Positions 945 to 47,640 of a stretch of DNA of 64,000 bases are shown here, piece after piece (position 1 is the first letter of the stretch; each line of letters begins with the position of its first letter). The stretch spans positions 81,866,179 through 81,930,178 of the forward strand of contig NC_090389.1 in assembly GCF_036365525.1 (NCBI RefSeq), in the 5' to 3' direction. The DNA is from Heterodontus francisci. Taxonomy: Eukaryota. The notes beneath the pieces were generated by a model that worked only from the letters and a program-made list of their open reading frames with translations, was not told the origin of the DNA and did not search any database. Both the position numbers and the translations under genes were made by a program.

Positions 945-2160
945 GCACATTAGTATTGAAAAACAGAGAAGTTATGTTAAACTTCTACAGAACTTTGGTT
1001 AGACCATGCTTGGAGTACTATGAGCATTTATGGTGTCCATATTACAAAAAGAATATAGACGCACTGGAGAAATTCAAAAAACATGTGCCAGGTTGATATC
1101 AGAACTGAGAGGTTACGGGCAGGAATTTTATTTTGGGGTCAAGACCCTGACATCAGGATCATTTCTGGGTCCCGACCCCCCCATGACGTGCACAGCCAGC
1201 ACGATTTTTGTTGGGTTGGCCAATTAATGGCCAGAGGGCCGCTTGTTGTCTACTTAAGGATGGTGGGTGGGCTCTCAAAGCTGGAGGGCCAATAAGATGC
1301 CCGCCAGCAGTGAGAAAGCTGCAGTCTGCTGTGCCGGTAAAGGAGAAAGAGTGTGGCCTAAGATGGAGGCACCCTGACTTTTAAAATCTTTGTGAATACA
1401 AATGGCCAAAGTTGCCGGACCACCTTTGTGGAGGGGGACTCCCTCTACAGTGAACTGAGGCGGCTTCCCAACGGCAGACTGGGGCCCTCTGCAAGGCAGC
1501 CTGCAGCCATTTGCAAGTCAGCTGCAGGGGGGGATCTTAGATAGTGAAATGGACACTGGAGCCATGGTCTGCCGTCGAGAAGCCACTTCCTTTCACTGGC
1601 TGTGTTTCGGTCACTGCTGGGGGTCTGCCTGCTGACTGGAAAATTCCACTTGGAGCGGGAGAGAGGGCCTTAATAGGCCCATAATAACCTCAACCTTAAA
1701 AATGTCTGAGAGGCGGGACTGTGCCGGCATGACAGTTGGGGACGGGAAATTCCAGGCCAGTCTGCTTCTGTTCCCTCCTCTGGTGGCTTCCAAAATTCTG
1801 TCCTATAACTATCAGGGAAAACTGAATAAGCTGGGGTTCTTTTCTCCAGCAAAGGGAAGGCCAGGCTTGGTCTAACAGAGGTCTTTAAAATTATTAAGGG
1901 TTTTGGTAAGGTAGACGTAGAGAAGATATTTCCACTTGTGAGGGAAGATCAAAATAGGGGCCATAAATTCAAGAATAGTTGTTAATAAATCCAATAAGGA
2001 ATTCGGGAGCAACTTCTTTACCCAGAGTATGGTTAGAATGTAGAACTCATGACCACATGGAGTGGTTGAGGCCAATAGCATAGATGCATTTATGGGGAAG
2101 CTAAATGACTACGTGAGGGAGAAAGGAAAAAAGGATATGCTGATAGTGTTAGAGACATTG
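945..2160 (+). mobile_element. Old CR1 LINE 3' fragment interrupted by a TIR element at 1117-1803
   Basis: Translates as YRTLVRPCLEY..LWCPYYKKNIDALEK before 1117; CR1-like sequence resumes at about 1804. Confidence 0.8.
1117..1803. mobile_element. Non-autonomous Harbinger-type TIR element (MITE-like)
   Basis: Termini gggcaggaatttt ... aaaattctgtcc; 3-nt flanks tac/tat. It cleanly interrupts a CR1 and is homologous to 30475-31205. Confidence 0.7.
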
Positions 2161-2764
2161 GTCACAGCGGCCTGTTCAAAATCATGTAAAACATTCAAAT
2201 GAGGGCCCATGCATGCCTGTGATGCAGCCACATATTTGACCTCACAATTAGGCAGGTAAGGTCCTGGCTAGCAGCATGCCTGCTCCTAGCAAAGCACTGC
2301 AATGTCAGCACAGGCTCAGAAACTCATGGGCTGTGGTGTAGAGTTCCCAGAGCCACCACTGTTGTGTGGGCATGCTGACTGTACAGCTCAGTTTCGCATT
2401 TGTTCATTTTGGAAATTCCCAGTACAGGCCTTCCCCACATTCTTGCACCTCCAGGATGTGTGATGTCAGTGGGTGCAGATGACAGATGCTGCAAATTAAG
2501 CAAATGCATGTTTCTGATGGCTTGGCCAGTATCAGGTTATTTTGCTTTGTGGTCGCCGGTTTGATTACAGATTCTTAGAAGCGACTATCAGCAGCATCAT
2601 CTTAGTGAGCCACTTTCACTTGTGCAGTCTTTCCCTGCCTTTGAAATTTTGTTAAATTATTTATGTTGAGCTGGGTCTGATGATATTTTGTTATTGTGGC
2701 TTCATGGAAAATCAAGGTGCTTATTTTTTCTAATCAGTTGATACACCTCTTAGTAAGAAAGAGA

Positions 2765-2945
2765 GCACTTGCATTTATATAGCGCATCTCATGACCTCAA
2801 GATGTATCAAAGCATTTTCCAGCCAAATATGTACTCTTGAAGTGTAGTCACTTGAAGCTGTAGTGTAGGAAAGGTGACAGCCAATTTGCACACAGCGAGC
2901 TCGCACAAACACCAATGTGATAATGACCAAATAGCCTGTTTTAGT
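2765..2945 (-). mobile_element. Deu-domain SINE 3' part (SacSINE1/AmnSINE1-like)
   Basis: ttgcatttatatagcgc...ttgaagtgtagtcac...gccaatttgcacacagc...tgtgataatgacc; recurs at 13680, 15780, 49928 and elsewhere. Confidence 0.7.
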
Positions 2946-3242
2946 AATGTTTGCTTTGTAATTTGTTTATATCAGGGTGAATGTTTAATGGCAAGGGCAA
3001 CAAAAATAAAGGGGATTTTGAGTAGCTGTGTATGGCCAGGTAATAGATAAATACGGCACATGTTTGAAGATAGGTCAAACAGGGAGCCTCAAGACAAAAA
3101 TGGGATACTTTCTAGATTACTTCTTAGCTGATTTCTCAAGTTGCAGAGAATACACATGGACAGTCTGATAGACTGTAGGTCATTTCATTAGCATTAATAT
3201 CTGTCTGAGGAAGGTACTCAGACAGATAGATATTAATGCTAA

Positions 3243-3881
3243 GTACCTTGCTCTACAGCAGCAAGGCCTGGACAACGTATGTCAGCCAAGAGCGACGTCT
3301 CAATTCATTCCATCTTCGCTGCCTCCAGAGAATCCTTGGCATCAGGTGGCAGGACCACATCTCCAACGCAGAAGTCCTTGAGGCGGCCAACATCCCCAGC
3401 ATATACACCCTACTGAGCCAGCGGCTCTTGAGATGACTTGGCCATCCCCATGGAAGATGGCAGGATCCCCAAGGACACATTGTACAGTGAGCCCGTCACT
3501 GGTATCAGACCCACCGGCGGTCCATGTCTCCGCTTTAAAGACATCTGCAAACGCGACATGAAGTCCTGTGACATTGATCACAAGTCGTGGGAGTCAGTTG
3601 CCAGTGATCGCCAGAGCTGGCGGACAGCCATAAAGGCGGGGCTAAAGAGTGGCGAGTCGAAGAGACTTAGCAGTTGGCAGGATAAAAGACAGAAGCGCAA
3701 GGGGAGAGCCAACTGTGTAACAGCCCTGACAACCAATTTTATCTGCAGCACCTGTGGAAGAGTCTGTCACTCTAGAATTGGCCTTTATAGCCACTCCAGG
3801 CGCTGCTTCACAAACCACTGACCACCTCCAGGCGCTTACCCATTGTCTCTCGAGACAAGGAGGCCAAAGAAAGCAAGAAAG
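3243..3881 (+). mobile_element. RTE-clade LINE, 5'-truncated
   Basis: STLLYSSKAWT...RIPKDTLY...CSTCGRVCHSRIGLYSHSRRC; short 3' UTR with an aag-rich tail. Candidate TSD aatatctgt(c/t)tg at 3196-3207 and 3882-3893. Confidence 0.9.
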
Positions 3882-31633: not shown

Positions 31634-31664
31634 GCCACGTTTCTGTGTCCTGCAGAGAATTTGA
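31634..31664 (+). CDS. HEMK1: HEMK1 last coding exon, (K)PRFCVLQRI*
   Basis: Acceptor tttgttcccattacag|. AA|G completes Lys, giving DTCGKPRF (cf. DFCGRPRF); TGA at 31662-31664. Confidence 0.9.
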
Positions 31665-32560: not shown

Positions 32561-32932
32561 CACAATGCTATTAATTCCCTAGCTGATTAAAGGCTGAATG
32601 GAAACTTTCCTTGCTGATAATATTAATGTACTTTCCTGGGCTTGAACAGTATGTCCGAATCACAGTCCCACTGTAATCGGCAGTAATGCTACTCTGGGAC
32701 ACATAGTGCTGCTCCCTATCAGATGCCAGTTTTTCTCAGTTGGTAACAATCTTGTTGAGTCAAAAGCTTGTTGTTCAAGACCCATTCCAGGATCTGAGCA
32801 AATAAACTAAGGTGACACTTTAATGCAGTACTGAGGGAGTGCTACAGCATTGACGGTACTGCCCTTTGGAAGTGATGTTAAACCGAGGTTTTCCCAATTT
32901 AGGTGTGGCATTAAAGATCCTTTGATACCCAA

Positions 32933-34719: not shown

Positions 34720-36500
34720 AGGTTTTAATTTTCAAAGTCTAGGAAGGTGGAGGACATTGGGTGGGAACACGGTAGGGTTTTCAAATCATGAACACAGTGG
34801 AGGGCCAAGGGAAGGGCTGACTAAAATACTGCAGAGGCACAAAGTAAAGCTCAACTGCTTCAAAAGTGCCACATAGTGGCCATTGCTACATCCGTAAGAT
34901 TTGCTTTTCTCAGTGGTGAGTGGCAGGAATTCGGAGAGGGACATGAGCCCACTGGCATCACTGGAGTTGGCAGGGGAAGGCCTGGTGAATATATAAAGCC
35001 CAGCTGAGGGTGTTCAGATGGGAACAGGCTACTATGACATTAGACAGAACAGCCACAAGGTGCTGCAGCAGATTCAACCTCCTGGACAGCAGGAGGCTAG
35101 AGGAACACAGCGGGGGACTGCAAGGGGAGGAAGGCGCTATCCAAGACATTGTGTGCACAGCCCAAGCTTCAGCTGCCTGCAAATGACTGAATGCCAGTGC
35201 CATAAGAGCCTGTGCCTATCCAGACAAATGGTCTCGGATGTTTGTGCTCTGATCCACAATGACCTGAGGCCTTACAGCCCCCATGACAGTCCCTTACCTG
35301 CAGCCATCAAGGACTCTGTCGCCCTAAACTTTCATGCAGCTGGGTCGTTCCAGGGATCGGCTGTGGACCTAGGTGGCTTCTTGCAGTCGGCAGCTCATCC
35401 GGCCATTAGATAGATCATGGATGCCATTTTCAGGAGGGTTGGGGAATAAACCCATTTTGACGTAGATGGGCCTGCGCAGGCACAGAGGGTATTAGGTTCC
35501 GCCTTCATCGCTAGATTCCCCCAGGTGCAGGGCATCATCGTTTGTGCCCATGTGGCCATCAAGGCATCCAGCAAACAGTGAGATATATCAACAGGAAGGG
35601 CTTCCACTCTCTCAGCATACAACAGCTCTGTGACCACAACAAGAGCTTCCTCTACGTGTAACCTCGCTTTCTTGGCAGATTCCATGACTCCTTCATCCTC
35701 CGCCAGTCCAGGCAGCCTCAGTACACTCCATCCTTTAAAGTGCATGGATGGATCCAAGGGGACAAGGGAAATCCCTTGAAGAGATGGCAACTGACCCCTC
35801 TACGGGAGCCCCAGAACAGATGAAACAACCAATGCCACCTGCTCAGCAGGCCAACCATTGAGCAGGCCATCGAGTTTCGGATCTGATTCCGAAACCTGGA
35901 TCAGTCGGGTGGCACACTCCAGTACCCTCCTGCAAGGGTCTCAGTTAATGTGGTGATCTGCTGCGCTCTCCATAATATGGCCCTGCAGAAAGGTGTGGAC
36001 CTCGAAGAGTGTGAGGCCCTGGAAGGAGAGGAGCAGGAGATAAGAGAGGAGGAGAAGGAAGAGGGAGCAGAAGAGGATAACACTGAACAGAGAGGCGCAC
36101 CTGCTGCATGACGAAGCAGCCTGCCACCCTCCAGGAAGAGGACCTCCGTCCTCTACCTCATTGCGTGCAGCATTAGATCCAGGTGGACATTGATGAAGCG
36201 AGGGTCTGCCCATGCCCTAAAGCCAGGCCTGCTGTGACATCTTGTTTCCTTCTGATGAAATAGAAGGCTTTGGCACAAAATGCAGATCTCCCCCCTGCCA
36301 TGGGGTGTCCACATGAACTACTTGATCTGATCCACCTCCATTTTCAATCCCACTGGCTCTAAGTGGAAAGGAAACCCGTCTCCATACTAATTAAGGGCTT
36401 ACCCATTTGAAAATTGCAATCAGAATCAGTTTCCCACAGGAGACGTGTTTCTGACCCAAAACCAGTCCTGTATCCCACCTTCGTAACAATAATCCAGCCC
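34720..36500 (+). mobile_element. PIF/Harbinger transposon with a decayed transposase
   Basis: RRYPRH...LQMTECQC...LSRQMVSDVC...VALNFHAAGSFQGS (35018-35413), then RFPQVQGIIVCAHVAIKA (degenerate GxIDCTH). Right TIR aataatccagccc; left boundary uncertain (34181 or about 34720). Confidence 0.85.
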
Positions 36501-36672
36501 ATTATTTCCTTGAAATCTTCCTGTTATAATTTCAGCATCTATCATTGAAGAAAACAGCTTCCTAACTACCAGAATAAAAGCAAAATACTGCGGATGCTGG
36601 AAATCTGAAACAAAAACAAGAAATGCTGGATTCACTCAGCAGGTCTGGCAGCATCTGTGGAAAGAGAAGCAG

Positions 36673-36709
36673 AGTTAACGTTTCGGGTCAGTGACCCTTC
36701 TTCGGAACT
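36673..36709 (-). ncRNA. Minimal hammerhead ribozyme motif, inverted copy
   Basis: Exact reverse complement of 39872-39908. Confidence 0.7.
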
Positions 36710-37878
36710 GACAAATATTAGAAAAGTCACAGATTATAAACAAGTGAGGTGGGGGTGGGGCAAGAGATAACAAAGGAGAAGGTGCAGATTGGACCAGGCC
36801 ACATAGCTGACCAAAAGGTCATGGAGCAAAGGCAAACAATATGTTAATGGTGTGTTGAAAGACAAAGCATTAGTACAGATTAGGTGTGAATATACTGAAT
36901 ATTGAACATCAGCAAGTGCAAACCTGAAGAAAAACAACCTGAAAAAAACAGTGGGTAAGCAAACTGAACAAACTAAGATGAAATGAAATAAATGCAAAAA
37001 AAGATTGTAAAAAATGTAAAAAGGAATGCAAAAAAAAAGGAAGAAAAAATAACTAAAAATGACTAAAAATGAAAGTAAAGTGGGGGGCTGTCATGCTCTG
37101 AAATTATTGAACTCAATGTTCAGTCCGGCAGGCTGTAGTGTGCCTAATCGGTAGATGAGATGCTGTTCCTCGAGCTTGCGTTGATGTTCACTGGAACACT
37201 GCAGCAATCCCAGGACAGAGATGTGAGCATGAGAGCAGGGGGGAGTGTTGAAATGGCAAGCAACCGGAAGCTCAGGGTCCTGCTTGCGGACTGAGCGGAG
37301 ATGTTCCGCAAAGCGGTCACCCAGTCTGCGCTTGGTCTCCCCAATGTAGAGGAGACCACACTGTGAGCAGCGAATACAGTATACTACATTGAAAGAAGTA
37401 CAAGTAAATCGCTGCTTCACCTGAAAGGAGTGTTTGGGGCCTGGGATAGTGAGGAGAGAGGAGGTAAATGGGCAGGTATTACACCTCCTGCGATTGCAAG
37501 GGAAGGTGCCCTGGGACGGGGACGAGGTGGTGGGGGTAATGGAGGAGTGGACCAGGGTGTCGCGGAGGGAACGATCCCTTCGGAATGCTGACAGGGGAAG
37601 GGAAGGGAAGATGCGACTGGTAGTGGCATCACGCTGGAGGTGGCGAAAATGGCGGAGGATGATCCTTTGGATATGGAGGCTGGTGGGATGAAAAGTGAGG
37701 ACAAGGGGAACCCTGTCACGGTTCTGGGAGGGAGGGGAAGGGGTGAGGGTAGAGGTGCGGGGAATGGGTCGGACACGGTTGAGGGCCCTGTCAACCACAG
37801 TGCGGGGAAATCCTCGGTTGAGGAAAAAGGAGGTCATATCCTTCAACTCCATGCATTTCCTTCAAGTCCTTCAACTCC

Positions 37879-39495
37879 ATGCATTTCCTTCAAGTAAAAG
37901 GTGTCGCTATGGGTACCCGCATGGGTCCTAGTTATGCCTGTCTTTTTGTGGGACATGTCGAGCATTCTTTGTTCCAGTCCTACTCAGGCCCCCTCCCCCA
38001 ACTCTTTTTCCGGTACATTGATGACTGTATCGGTGCCGTTTCCTGCTCCCGCTACATCCGTGACTCTTCTGACGCCCTACGTCATTTTGACAATTTCCAG
38101 TTTCCTGGTCCCAAGCGCCTCCTCTTCACTATGGACGTCCAATCGCTCTACACCTCCATCCCCCACCAGGATGGTTTGAGGGCTCTCCGCTTCTTCCTGG
38201 AACAGAGGCCCAACCAGTCCCCATCCACCAACACCCTCCTCCGCCTGGCTAAACTTGTTCTCACATTGAACAACTTCTCCTTCAACTCCATGCATTTCCT
38301 TCAAGTAAAAGGTGTCGCTATGGGTACCCGCATGGGTCCTAGTTATGCCTGTCTTTTTGTGGGACATGTCGAGCATTCTTTGTTCCAGTCCTACTCAGGC
38401 CCCCTCCCCCAACTCTTTTTCCGGTACATTGATGACTGTATCGGTGCCGTTTCCTGCTCCCGCCCCGAACTAGAAAACTTTATCAACTTTGCTTCCAATT
38501 TCCACCCTTCTCTCACCTTTACATGGTCCATCTCTGACACTTCCCTTCCCTTCCTCGACTTCTCTGTCTCCATCTCTGGGGATAGGTTGTCTACCAATAT
38601 CCATTATAAGCCCACTGACTCCCACAGCTACCTCGACTACACTTCTTCACACCCTACCTCCTGTAAGGACTCCATTCCATTCTCCCAGTTTCTCCGTCTC
38701 CGACGCATCTGCTCTGATGATGCTACCTTCCATGACGGTGCTTCTGATATGACCTCCTTTTTCCTCAACCGAGGATTTCCCCGCACTGTGGTTGACAGGG
38801 CCCTCAACCGTGTCCGACCCATTCCCCGCACCTCTACCCTCACCCCTTCCCCTCCCTCCCAGAACCGTGACAGGGTTCCCCTTGTCCTCACTTTTCATCC
38901 CACCAGCCTCCATATCCAAAGGATCATCCTCCGCCATTTTCGCCACCTCCAGCGTGATGCCACTACCAGTCGCATCTTCCCCTCCCTTCCCCTGTCAGCA
39001 TTCCGAAGGGATCGTTCCCTCCGCGACACCCTGGTCCACTCCTCCATTACCCCCACCACCTCGTCCCCGTCCCAGGGCACCTTCCCTTGCAATCGCAGGA
39101 GGTGTAATACCTGCCCATTTACCTCCTCTCTCCTCACTATCCCAGGCCCCAAACACTCCTTTCAGGTGAAGCAGCGATTTACTTGTACTTCTTTCAATGT
39201 AGTATACTGTATTCGCTGCTCACAGTGTGGTCTCCTCTACATTGGGGAGACCAAGCGCAGACTGGGTGACCGCTTTGCGGAACATCTCCGCTCAGTCCGC
39301 AAGCAGGACCCTGAGCTTCCGGTTGCTTGCCATTTCAACACTCCCCCCTGCTCTCATGCTCACATCTCGGTCCTGGGATTGCTGCAGTGTTCCAGTGAAC
39401 ATCAACGCAAGCTCGAGGAACAGCATCTCATCTACCGATTAGGCACACTACAGCCTGCCGGACTGAACATTGAGTTCAATAATTTCAGAGCATGA
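37879..39495 (+). CDS. 5'-truncated, rearranged Penelope-like RT/GIY-YIG ORF (538 aa, uninterrupted)
   Basis: Open frame in the ORF track. The N-terminal 58 aa duplicate an internal RT segment; the native N-terminus is absent. Confidence 0.6.
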   Translation: MHFLQVKGVAMGTRMGPSYACLFVGHVEHSLFQSYSGPLPQLFFRYIDDCIGAVSCSRYIRDSSDALRHFDNFQFPGPKRLLFTMDVQSLYTSIPHQDGLRALRFFLEQRPNQSPSTNTLLRLAKLVLTLNNFSFNSMHFLQVKGVAMGTRMGPSYACLFVGHVEHSLFQSYSGPLPQLFFRYIDDCIGAVSCSRPELENFINFASNFHPSLTFTWSISDTSLPFLDFSVSISGDRLSTNIHYKPTDSHSYLDYTSSHPTSCKDSIPFSQFLRLRRICSDDATFHDGASDMTSFFLNRGFPRTVVDRALNRVRPIPRTSTLTPSPPSQNRDRVPLVLTFHPTSLHIQRIILRHFRHLQRDATTSRIFPSLPLSAFRRDRSLRDTLVHSSITPTTSSPSQGTFPCNRRRCNTCPFTSSLLTIPGPKHSFQVKQRFTCTSFNVVYCIRCSQCGLLYIGETKRRLGDRFAEHLRSVRKQDPELPVACHFNTPPCSHAHISVLGLLQCSSEHQRKLEEQHLIYRLGTLQPAGLNIEFNNFRA

Positions 39496-39871
39496 CAGCC
39501 CCCCACTTTCATTTTTAGTCATTTTTAGTTATTTTTTCTTCCTTTTTTTTTGCATTCCTTTTTACATTTTTTACAATCTTTTTTTGCATTTATTTCATTT
39601 CATCTTAGTTTGTTCAGTTTGCTTACCCACTGTTTTTTTCAGGTTGTTTTTCTTCAGGTTTGCACTTGCTGATGTTCAATATTCAGTATATTCACACCTA
39701 ATCTGTACTAATGCTTTGTCTTTCAACACACCATTAACATATTGTTTGCCTTTGCTCCATGACCTTTTGGTCAGCTATGTGGCCTGGTCCAATCTGCACC
39801 TTCTCCTTTGTTATCTCTTGCCCAACCCCCACCTCACTTGTTTATAATCTGTGACTTTTCTAATATTTGTC

Positions 39872-39908
39872 AGTTCCGAAGAAGGGTCACTGACCCGAAA
39901 CGTTAACT
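39872..39908 (+). ncRNA. Minimal type I hammerhead ribozyme motif in the PLE 3' region
   Basis: agtt-CCGAAGA-a-gggtc-act-gaccc-GAAAC-GTT-aact: stem I agtt/aact, stem II gggtc/gaccc, loopless palindromic stem III (ACGT). Confidence 0.7.
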
Positions 39909-41128
39909 CTGCTTCTCTTTCCACAGATGCTGCCAGACCTGCTGAGTGAATCCAGCATTTCTTGTTTTTGTTCCTAACTACCAGTCTTGTTCCATGACAA
40001 AGTCCTTGTTTAGGATTCAAGTTTTGTTGCAGCATCCTGTCCCTTCCTTGAGTCTAAGTTTGTGCGGTGGCACGCTCATTGGAGTTAGACTGTGTAGATA
40101 CTCTGGAGGGTAAAGACTATCATCTTCACCTATAGAATCAACACTGATATATTCTTTTAATTCACCCGACAGCTTTTCTAAAAGTTTTTCATTCAAATCT
40201 AATGAATTTTCATTTTTAGCACAAAGAATAGCTTTTGAATAATAAGTGTATCAAAGAATTGTCCCCGCCATTTTGTCACACTTAACTAATTCCATCATCT
40301 CATCCACCCATCCCATGCTATTCCCATCCCTTTCCTTCCATCTCTCCCATGCCATCCTCATCCTGCTCTTGCCAACCCATCCCTCACTGAAACAATGTCT
40401 CCAACCAGGGTAACTTTATTTTTGGGCTCCCCTTACATTCCACTGTTTTTGTTCAACAACTCCCCACCCCTGTTGCCACCACCAACTGTTGGCAGCTGCA
40501 CATGCACCACACACTCCAGTCCTCTGCACACCCCATTTGCCTCAGCGTGCGCGAGGCACTGCCCACCATATAAACCCACCAATAGACGTGCCCCTTAAAC
40601 TCACCAATCAAAACAGTCCAGACAGAAACTGATTATTATTGATTACAGACGCAGCTGTTTGAGGAAGCTAAACCTGTGGTATGCATTTGATAAAGCAATC
40701 CTCAACACTGCACTCGAGCAGGACTTGCTTCGACTGGCAGACAAGTTTCCCTATTTGCTCATGTGTTCAATTCCACATTTTACAGCTGAAGTTAGTTGCA
40801 TTTCATTCTGCAGAATCCGTAATGGCTTAGTGGGTTACACATCACATGATGTGTTGCGTGAGCTGCACAGCCTGGGAAAGTTCCGACTTTGGTCTGTGTC
40901 CAGAGTTGGTTAATCTCATTGGAGTCAGCAGTACAGTCGAGGTAGAAATTCAGAGTGATGGTGCTGAACTGGTAGTATCACATCATTACACATCCACCTG
41001 TTATACCCACCCGATGCTCAGCTCCATTACAGTCAATCAATTTCAATATCAGGCGGCAGGTGCACTACTGCCATTTCGCACTGCCGCTCAGGTTGAATTT
41101 CCACCCTTTGCAGGGCGTGAGAGTCTCC

Positions 41129-46559: not shown

Positions 46560-47640
46560 CAGCGGGTGTGGCAGCACCTGTAGAAAGAGAAACAGAGTTA
46601 ACATTTCAGGTCGATGGTCTTTCATCAGAACTGGCAAAGTTTTGAAATGTGATAGGATTTTGAGCAAGTGAAAGTGGGAAGGGGGGGGGAGAAAAGAACA
46701 AAAGGGAAGGTCTGTGATAGGGTAGAGGACGGGAGAGATTAAATGACAAAGATGTCATGAACCAAAAGGCAAAGAGAGTGCTAATAGTTGCAGTAAAAGA
46801 CAAAGCATTTTCCAGAGAGTGTTAATGGCAGAATAATGAACTTCTCTGTCTGAAAGGGAAAACATCAAAAACAAGTTTAAGACCGAGTCATGATCTGAAG
46901 TTGTTGAACTCAATGCTGAGTCCAGAAGGCTGTAAAGTGCCTAATCAGAAGATGAGGTGCTGCTCCTCGAGCTTCACTGGAACACTGCAGCAGGCAGAGG
47001 ACAGAAATATGGGCGTGAGAGCAAAATGGCAAGCAACTGGAAGTTCGGGGTCATGCTTGCGGACTGAGCGGAGGTGTTCTGCAAAGCGGTCACTCAATAT
47101 GCGTTTGGTCTCCCCAGTGTAGAGGCGGCCGCAATGAGAGCAGAGAGTACAGTACACTAAATTAAAAGAAATACAAGTAAATTGCTGCTTCACCTGGAAG
47201 GAGTGTTTGGGGCCTTCGATGATGAAGAGCAAGGTGGTAAAAGGGAAGGTGTTGCACCTCCTGTGATTGCATGGGAAGGTGCTGTGGGAAGGGACAAGGG
47301 GTTAGGGGTGGTGGAGTAGACCAGAGTGTCGTAAAGGGAATGGTCCCTTTGGAATGCTACAGGGGGTAGGAGGGGAAGAAGCGTTTGGTGGTGGCATCAC
47401 GCTGCAGGTGGCGGAAATTGCAGAGGATGATCCTTTGGATGTTGAGGCTTTTAATTTAGTATACTGTATTCATTGCTCACTGTGCGGTCTCCTCTACAAT
47501 GAGGAGACCAAACACAGATTGGGTGATTGCTTTGTGGAACACCTCTGCTCAGTCCGGAAGCATGGCCCCGAGCTTCCAGGTGCTTGCCATTTTAATTCAC
47601 CACTTTGCTCTCATGCCCACATTTCTGTTATTGGCCTCTT
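46560..47640. mobile_element. Older Penelope-like element with an inversion (minus arm 46560-47445, plus arm 47447-47640)
   Basis: GPKHSFQVKQQFTCISFNLVYC..YTGETKR on the minus strand and FNLVYCIHCSLCGLLYNEETKH on the plus strand. Hammerhead-like CTGATGA...GAAA at 46595-46632 (-). Confidence 0.85.

Follow-up and report, generated by a model that had tools for sequence, protein, structure and literature searches.

In R2 and L1 retrotransposons one strand of the target is nicked first. In L1 twin priming both target strands come to prime reverse transcription, which leaves an inversion with short microhomology inside one target site duplication (TSD), and the inverted and direct parts cover separate stretches of the element. 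For Penelope-like elements (PLEs), the typical layout given in the passages of the literature considered here is an inverted 5'-truncated copy with a 30-40-nt tail at one end and a TSD (PMC8557442, Fig. 2 legend; PMC3846280; PMC2377424). According to the parts of PMC11167929 considered here, the Anolis Poseidon element PAc cleaves and extends both strands in vitro and is predicted to form a dimer, and two internal reverse-transcription start sites bound its tail. The origin of the tandem and inverted structures of PLEs and of their tail was called unresolved in passages of PMC8557442 and PMC11167929, and our literature search on Penelope and twin priming returned no title on the point. Here, we have analyzed an inverted insertion in the genome of Heterodontus francisci, within a window of 64,000 nucleotides (the whole stretch of DNA examined), and compared it with other copies of its family (Table 1).

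On the basis of its coding sequence, the insert is identified as a PLE with reverse transcriptase (RT) and GIY-YIG domains, presumably of the Penelope/Poseidon clade. Matches to RVT_1 and then GIY-YIG were obtained at 38056-39492 of the window and in a 941-aa frame of another copy (L015), in both cases with both scores below the Pfam curated cut-offs. The window copy has no full ORF and no direct pLTR. In the family, TSDs and 5' truncation are present, and tandem units were found in a 3,305-nt array on contig C8 and, as partial tandems, in L039, L041, L050, L054 and L130; in tandem arrays the unit runs on beyond the tail. Two positions accumulate 3' ends of family copies, q3303-3305 with 113 hits and q3265-3270 with 70. 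A minimal hammerhead has been described in PLE pLTRs (PMC4209133). The hammerhead-like motif of this family was identified by eye only, has a fold z-score of -0.49 and carries a core variant in the young subfamily of the window copy, and an Rfam search of a related unit gave no hammerhead match at E<=1.

Table 1. Features of the insertion and its surroundings in window coordinates (q, position in the natural 3,305-nt unit of the element)
Feature	Position	Strand	Remark
Probable last coding exon, HEMK1-like gene	31634..31664	+	stop codon 31662-31664
Helitron-like PIF1-helicase relic, left part (host repeat)	36503..36572	-	
Left half-site of two-fold symmetric target motif	36549..36558	+	
Left TSD copy, 14 nt	36559..36572	.	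present once in empty paralogues
Left arm, antisense element 3' part, q2038-3305	36573..37840	-	starts at long (tail-bearing) end
PLE 'tail', 38 nt, q3268-3305	36573..36610	-	at left end only
Hammerhead-like motif, minimal, left-arm pLTR, q3167-3205	36673..36711	-	by eye against PMC4209133
Templated piece A, 28 nt, q1570-1597	37839..37866	+	2-nt TC overlap with left arm
Templated piece B, 186 nt, q1570-1755	37867..38052	+	rare allele q1657C common to piece C
Main sense piece C, q1344-3269	38052..39972	+	RT and GIY-YIG coding, 3' UTR, short tail-less end
Right arm of 1,232-nt inverted repeat	38746..39972	+	905-nt spacer between arms
Hammerhead-like motif, minimal, right-arm pLTR	39870..39908	+	by eye against PMC4209133
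Right TSD copy	39971..39984	.	first TT common to element
Helitron-like PIF1-helicase relic, right part	39971..40650, end approximate	-	Pif1_2B
Right half-site of target motif	39985..39994	-	

The original prediction, made from the letters of the window, was of a near-perfect inverted repeat of about 1.23 kb inside one 14-bp TSD, and this was confirmed: the reverse complement of 36609-37840 aligned to the right arm over 1,232 columns, and the two copies of the 14-mer are identical and are the only ones in the window. The differences between the arms are the expected three substitutions (37604/38982, 37217/39369 and 36757/39824) and one indel, 5 nt at 37077-37081 of the left arm that are missing from the right arm. 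It also held true that the left arm is an antisense copy of the element 3' part and that the right end falls 38 nt short of it, or 36 nt if the TT common to the TSD is counted as element. The right part of the insert, on the other hand, had been taken for one sense copy and consists of three pieces, with the two extra templated ones (A and B) at the insert centre. Both of these start at q1570, piece A overlaps piece B by 1 nt, and piece B is identical to 38278-38463. The TC overlap at 37839-37840 is real, but pieces A and B intervene between the two cDNAs that it was supposed to join. Each arm holds sequence missing from the other. As a separate observation, one minimum-free-energy fold placed a hairpin just 5' of q1570, which is a lead to where the synthesis of pieces A and B might have stalled.

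The target appears to be a Helitron-like relic, so named from its PIF1-type helicase coding sequence (Pif1_2B match with E 0.022, below the curated cut-off); the helicase-like frame runs unbroken across empty sites. Among 39 paralogous copies of the relic, chosen by the right flank alone, none carried an insert at the site and most held the 14-mer once between contiguous flanks. The 14-nt TSD is therefore genuine. Genome-wide, 83 exact empty sites were found, and 11 other Helitron copies were filled at the same site, a hot spot about 100-fold over background at which only ∼2-4% of copies are filled.

Around a 14-nt core, the flanks of the family targets show a weak motif with two-fold symmetry. 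The correlation between the left half-site and the reverse complement of the right one was r=0.59 at the 14-nt core (permutation p 0.0006, n=46) and at most 0.24 at the other core widths from 11 to 17, and the 27 sites not picked with the window flank gave r=0.44 (p 0.004). Held-out sites reached a median 93.8th percentile on the target motif, with 10 of 14 above the 90th and shifted controls at 63-70; their symmetry peaked at 15 nt (0.38), and the predicted 14 nt gave 0.25 (permutation p 0.08, n=14). The score of the window site was matched or beaten by 1 in 30,000 random sites. It should be noted that such a bias could stem from DNA shape or chromatin and not from a protein dimer. A target that mimics the tail was also considered, as CCAG preceded the long end in nine of the ten loci L011-L020 and TCAG in the tenth. 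We rejected this idea: the pattern arose from how the query selected loci and was absent from the ORF-selected set.

To place the insertion in its family, 180 loci were fetched, which yielded 85 two-armed insertions (about 6 of them duplicates of one another). The tails-out layout is not unusual; it is the typical published PLE form and ordinary both in this genome and in this family, where it was found in 9 of 29 distinct ORF-selected insertions. A TSD could be called in 80 long-end insertions; its length had a mode of 14 nt (28 of 80) and was 13-15 nt in 54 of them. A tail on one arm and not on the other was seen in 81 of the 85 two-armed insertions (58 of 62, then 23 of 23 in fresh loci), and in none was it truly on both. 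The exceptions were L039, which is long plus short once an inner tandem pLTR is passed, L045, which is cut off at the edge of its locus, and a pair of old copies at 79-83%. Picking loci on one end leaves the other end unselected; loci picked on the short end had a second arm in 16 of 20 cases, all long, and loci picked on the long end never had a long second arm. Only one arm was present in 22 of 39 primary hits of the fresh-loci set, suggesting that the second priming is often absent or erased. Four short arms that end near q3201-3204, together with L166, pointed to a third class of ends, located where the hammerhead is predicted to cleave. This class was unsupported, since 57 genome-wide matches against 77 at a control position (both counts inflated by subfamily variants) revealed no enrichment.

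Rare alleles were used to examine the source of the two arms. Allele q3056A occurs in both window arms and otherwise in 3 of 55 copies, at 2 loci, and q1657C occurs in pieces B and C and in 1 of 33 other copies. Because of this sharing, one source locus for the window insertion is likely, with the reservation that q3056A, being part of a CpG, can arise repeatedly, and that gene conversion between the arms could also homogenize them. The window arms differ at four places. It had been suggested that arm-specific variants might be found in different source copies; this applies to q3121, a common family polymorphism (C in 22 copies, A in 38), whereas the other three differences are private. We lean slightly towards two units or molecules having been copied at this site, and comparison at common polymorphic sites has little power here (background median of 1-3 differences).

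The best reading of these data, to which we assign a probability of about 0.7, is one PLE insertion by twin target priming: a paired RT-endonuclease made a cut with a 14-nt stagger in a symmetric target, and both cut ends primed reverse transcription. A dimer would nick both strands 14 nt apart and leave 3' overhangs. The top-strand end would then prime at q3305, the outer of two start sites on the RNA, and the bottom-strand end near q3268, the inner site, through a 2-nt TT match, the cDNAs stopping at q2038 and q1344, respectively. Joining would involve 1-2-nt microhomologies and two template jumps that aborted and left pieces A and B, and fill-in of the staggered ends would create the TSD. 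Both boundaries are element 3' ends of one insertion, as originally predicted, and priming by both 3' ends of the cut remains the likeliest explanation. The 38-nt shortfall corresponds to the known tail between two internal start sites (PMC11167929, parts considered here), so the physical 3' end of the RNA is required by neither primer. Six insertions (L035, L042, L044, L061, L114 and L115) invert barely beyond the tail, which would be expected if both starts lie on one RNA. The more specific proposal, that a PLE dimer reads the symmetric target with a 14-nt stagger and directs the two 3' ends to two fixed RNA starts 38 nt apart, seems to us somewhat better than an even bet.

An antisense template has been proposed, and palindromic centres have been read in this manner, in the part of the PMC3846280 Discussion considered here. 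One cDNA (or an antisense template) would snap back and copy itself, and the hairpin would be opened into an inverted repeat. Such an origin would suit L028 and L113, in which the centre is palindromic and both arms begin at one position, the 7 of 17 long pairs in which the short arm is contained in the long arm, and the rare alleles common to both arms (4 in L028, 4 in L048 and 7 in L113). However, the second arm should then be contained in the first, and in the window the tail-less short-end arm extends 694 nt beyond the 5' limit of the long-end arm, so that neither is a plain copy of the other. The short arm was likewise not nested in 10 of the 17 long pairs, and the q3121 difference also speaks against self-copying, which we consider unlikely. 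A lower probability still is given to a single target-primed cDNA, with host end-joining adding pieces A and B as well as the second arm by copying another cDNA or genomic copy. Short central templated patches with 1-2-nt overlaps were indeed observed in the window, L028, L048 and L052, and end-joining repair probably accounts for pieces A and B even under twin priming, but it leaves unexplained why second arms end at a common inner site (q3265-3271 in most), which is also the terminus of the single-arm insertions L032, L034, L105 and L111.

The hot spot and the polymorphic nature of q3121 might favor two independent insertions, placed head-to-head or joined by recombination. The original prediction had named two insertions, each with its own TSD, as evidence against it; only one TSD was found, and q3056A is present in both arms. 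In addition, few copies are filled even at the Helitron site, and independence would not put the tail on exactly one arm so consistently. The one-tail rule largely refutes this reading, which is highly improbable. The least credible explanation is a false inversion assembled in a repeat. Among the contigs listed for four public runs, those over 36200-38270 were swamped by family copies and none bridged 37795-37910; in the best runs, 0.70-0.77 of the words of 36000-40500 are present, which roughly equals the share of element sequence there, so these runs may not carry the window allele. Against an artefact stand the four differences between the arms, three of them private, the clean TSD and the same layout at dozens of loci, including one event on two separate contigs (L048 and L049).

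With regard to the neighboring gene, the stop codon of a methyltransferase-like gene lies 4.9 kb upstream of the insert, close to the predicted 5 kb, but its name, HEMK1, is weakly backed and leans also on motifs that we take to be those of this gene. A read-through transcript from it, originally predicted to fold into about 1.2 kb of dsRNA over the arms, may be rare because AATAAA hexamers are present at 32801, 35445 and 36573, the last being the first base of the insert. Double-stranded RNA and siRNA from Penelope inverted repeats have already been described (PMC3681739). The locus is one of many, and a function is probably not to be expected.

If twin priming with the proposed dimer and two-start geometry is true, it would account for the length of the TSD and the tail on one side, for tails-out inversions whether or not their arms overlap, and for hot spots defined by sequence. 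The census yields testable numbers (a 14-nt stagger, symmetric half-sites, the one-tail rule and a natural high-scoring target), and a retroelement that cuts both strands, primes from each and has a definable target would depart from the scheme for R2 and L1, in which a single nick comes first. Unlike in L1 twin priming, and as originally predicted, the window arms share element sequence, 1,232 nt of it, and each begins close to the 3' region of the RNA; the element also lacks a poly(A) tail and uses a different endonuclease. The six insertions with almost no overlap come near the L1 pattern. The family resembles D. virilis Penelope (PMC2377424), Adineta vaga Pen2/Pen2a (PMC3846280) and the scheme of PMC8557442 in the inverted 5'-truncated copy at the 5' side, the tail on one end only, the whole unit in one TSD and the variable arm length. 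In A. vaga PLEs the TSD is 9-10 nt (PMC3846280), compared with a mode of 14 nt here, and the window copy differs from published inverted-pLTR PLEs in its two central templated pieces and in having no full ORF or direct pLTR. The symmetric target motif and the counted one-tail rule are not reported in the passages of PMC2377424, PMC3846280 and PMC8557442 considered here. The parts of PMC11167929 considered here do not give the stagger of PAc or relate its pair of start sites to the paired arms of inverted insertions. PAc favors an ATT motif at the cut, whereas the bias of our family lies outside the 14-nt core and is two-fold symmetric; PAc has a hammerhead in its pLTR, where the window pLTRs have a hammerhead-like motif recognized by eye. 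As in PAc, RT is followed by GIY-YIG in one ORF and two 3' ends bound the tail (PMC11167929, same parts).

The inverted arms of the insertion are near-perfect, as originally predicted: the alignment of 38746-39972 with the reverse complement of 36609-37840 (1,232 columns) contained three substitutions and one 5-nt indel, with a spacer of 905 nt between the arms. Positions in the Penelope-like element (PLE), denoted q, are numbered on a natural unit of 3,305 nt that forms part of a tandem array (contig C8). The left end was confirmed to be longer than the right by 38 nt. The right part had been described as one sense copy joined through TC; a 2-nt overlap does exist there (overlaps at the internal junctions were 2, 1 and 1 nt), but two short pieces, A and B, had been missed. 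The sense part codes RT and then GIY-YIG (both matches below Pfam cut-offs), and an open frame of 941 aa was found elsewhere in the genome in a copy 98.8% identical to the window element (L015).

Features of the window, in order of position (q, position in the 3,305-nt PLE unit)
Feature	Window position	q	Remark
Exons with NPPY and DGG motifs	9049 and 11224		tentatively HEMK1-like gene
Short terminal exon, stop codon	31662-31664		tentatively HEMK1-like gene
AATAAA hexamers	32801, 35445, 36573		
TSD, left copy	36559-36572		exact 14-mer
Start of antisense tail	36573-36578		AATAAA
Left arm		3305-2038	antisense
Piece A	37839-37866	1570-1597	sense
Piece B	37867-38052	1570-1755	sense
Piece C	38052-39972	1344-3269	sense
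TSD, right copy	39971-39984		exact 14-mer
Older relic of same PLE family	46887-47628		minus strand, ~80% identical

The gene upstream of the insert may be HEMK1-like. Since the antisense tail opens with a poly(A)-signal hexamer, every long end presents one to transcripts entering from the flank. PMC3681739 reports siRNAs that match inverted Penelope regions. The insertion is real and its outline was correctly described; its class is known, and within that class it is ordinary. The case is of value for the one-tail rule, the hot spot and the symmetry of the target, not for this locus.

The 3' ends of the element pile up at q3303-3305 (long end, with a 38-nt tail) and q3265-3270 (short, tail-less end). 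Exactly one long end was scored by script in 58 of 62 two-armed insertions (loci L001-L140 and the window) and was present in 23 of 23 from fresh loci (L141-L180), about 6 of these 85 insertions duplicating one another. None of the four exceptions carried a tail on both outer ends: L039 was long plus short once an inner tandem terminal repeat (pLTR) was passed, L045 was cut by the locus edge, and two were old copies (79-83%). Because most loci were chosen on one end, the informative part of the count is the unselected partner end. Loci picked by a short end had a second arm in 16/20, and the partner end was long in 16/16; a long partner end was never seen in loci picked by a long end, where a second arm was present in 5/18 and 17/39 (two sets).

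Most short copies start at q3166-3173, the 5' edge of a hammerhead-like motif, giving 135-nt hammerhead-plus-tail pieces; either RT may stop strongly there, or the template may be short and non-autonomous. Some second arms (L012, L017, L028:782-949, L133 and L166) end near the predicted cleavage site (q3201-3204), and ends at this site were not enriched in genome-wide pattern counts.

TSD lengths had a mode of 14 nt (28/80 calls). The first motif set comprised 46 of the 80, with calls of 13-15 nt and with Helitron hot-spot sites and duplicates left out. The 10 nt to the left of the 14-nt core mirrored the right-hand 10 nt (r 0.59, permutation p 0.0006), with half-sites A-rich at -8/-7, C or A at -5/-4 and A at -3; at other core widths r was 0.24 or less. 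For 27 sites chosen without the window flank, r was 0.44 (p 0.004), and the motif from these sites gave the window site a score matched by 1/30,000 random sites. In a held-out test with predictions set beforehand, 40 fresh loci yielded 14 distinct sites with a 13-15-nt TSD call, at a median of the 93.8th percentile (p 1e-5), where shifted controls reached 63-70. The motif replicates in fresh loci. Symmetry in these 14 sites peaked at a core width of 15, not 14 (at 14, p 0.08, not significant), and the main evidence for the exact stagger comes from the first set and the TSD lengths. Neither a symmetric PLE target motif nor a counted one-tail rule was found in the portion of the PLE literature searched; older structure papers and supplements may hold either.

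The insert is flanked by a repeat whose reading frame resembles a PIF1 helicase and which is probably a Helitron relic. The predicted single 14-bp TSD was borne out: the 14-mer has no further occurrence in the window, and it is single, with contiguous flanks, in most of 39 empty relic paralogues sampled by right flank. The last TSD base is G in both window copies and A in most paralogues, as expected if a G allele was duplicated upon insertion. The TSD is genuine. None of the 39 other relic copies chosen by right flank alone was filled at the window site; 11 other copies (L001-L010 and L100; 12 with the window) were filled there in the same orientation, and, varying as they do in TSD length, in the number and length of their arms and in identity (77-100%), these look like independent events. 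At two control junctions in other parts of the relic, 0 and 1 other filled copies were found, a weaker control given less conserved flanks (84% and 80% vs 90%). Exact patterns genome-wide gave 5 filled sites (window counted) vs 83 empty, with 3 extra matches outside the relic; judging from sample recovery (14 and 22 of 39), copies with the left anchor number ~130, likely too low a figure. At the background rate of 17 tail 16-mers per 1.04 Mb, about 0.01-0.03 filled copies would be expected for 130-250 relic copies and ~0.1 for 1,000; four were observed besides the window. The site is an insertion hot spot. An opposite-orientation insertion (L139) lies a few bases away. Three insertions of unequal arm length (L101, L104 and L117) share one site of another repeat, possibly a second hot spot.

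Priming from both cut ends, as originally proposed, is the best-supported mechanism, and the family census adds support. Simple fold-back would fit L028:3830-6737 and L113:3404-5495, near-perfect palindromes whose two arms start at one position (q1883 and q2234, respectively), but is excluded here, as each window arm holds sequence absent from the other. The centre of the L028 palindrome has a mirrored templated patch of 36-38 nt. The arm-specific variants were looked for in other copies, as suggested in the original prediction: q3121 is commonly polymorphic (C in 22 copies, A in 38), and the other three of the four differences are private, each absent from the 42-45 other copies compared. The chance that one of three new substitutions falls on a polymorphic site (22 of them over 1,214 nt) and yields the matching base was estimated at ~2%, which mildly favours arms from two units that differ slightly. 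The CpG change q3056A, found in 2 other loci, is common to both arms, and pieces B and C share q1657C, found in 1 other copy; a single source locus is thereby indicated. The C8 array (L022-L024) has three slightly different tandem units (9.2 kb, period 3,305) within one 14-nt TSD.

A tails-out count, suggested in the original prediction, gave 9 of 29 distinct insertions, with arm overlap of ~1.2 kb or more in 5; all 38 non-window matches of an internal ORF query were fetched and duplicates merged by hand. Samples lean to young copies, being drawn from about 40 best matches per search. One 3-kb insertion with identical flanks occurs at four places on contig C34 (L021, L026, L027 and L036), that is, a segmental duplication. 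L127 and L047 have an inversion inside the insertion, the second piece not being a 3' end. In published work, inverted pLTRs lie within 9-10-bp TSDs, one pLTR 37 bp shorter (PMC3846280); large inverted terminal repeats are the frequent form of D. virilis Penelope (PMC2377424); and the tail is bounded by two internal RT start sites, with both strands cleaved and extended and a dimer predicted (PMC11167929). The inverted two-armed layout is already published and common in this PLE family. In six insertions hardly more than the tail is inverted, which resembles classical twin priming on one RNA, as described for L1.
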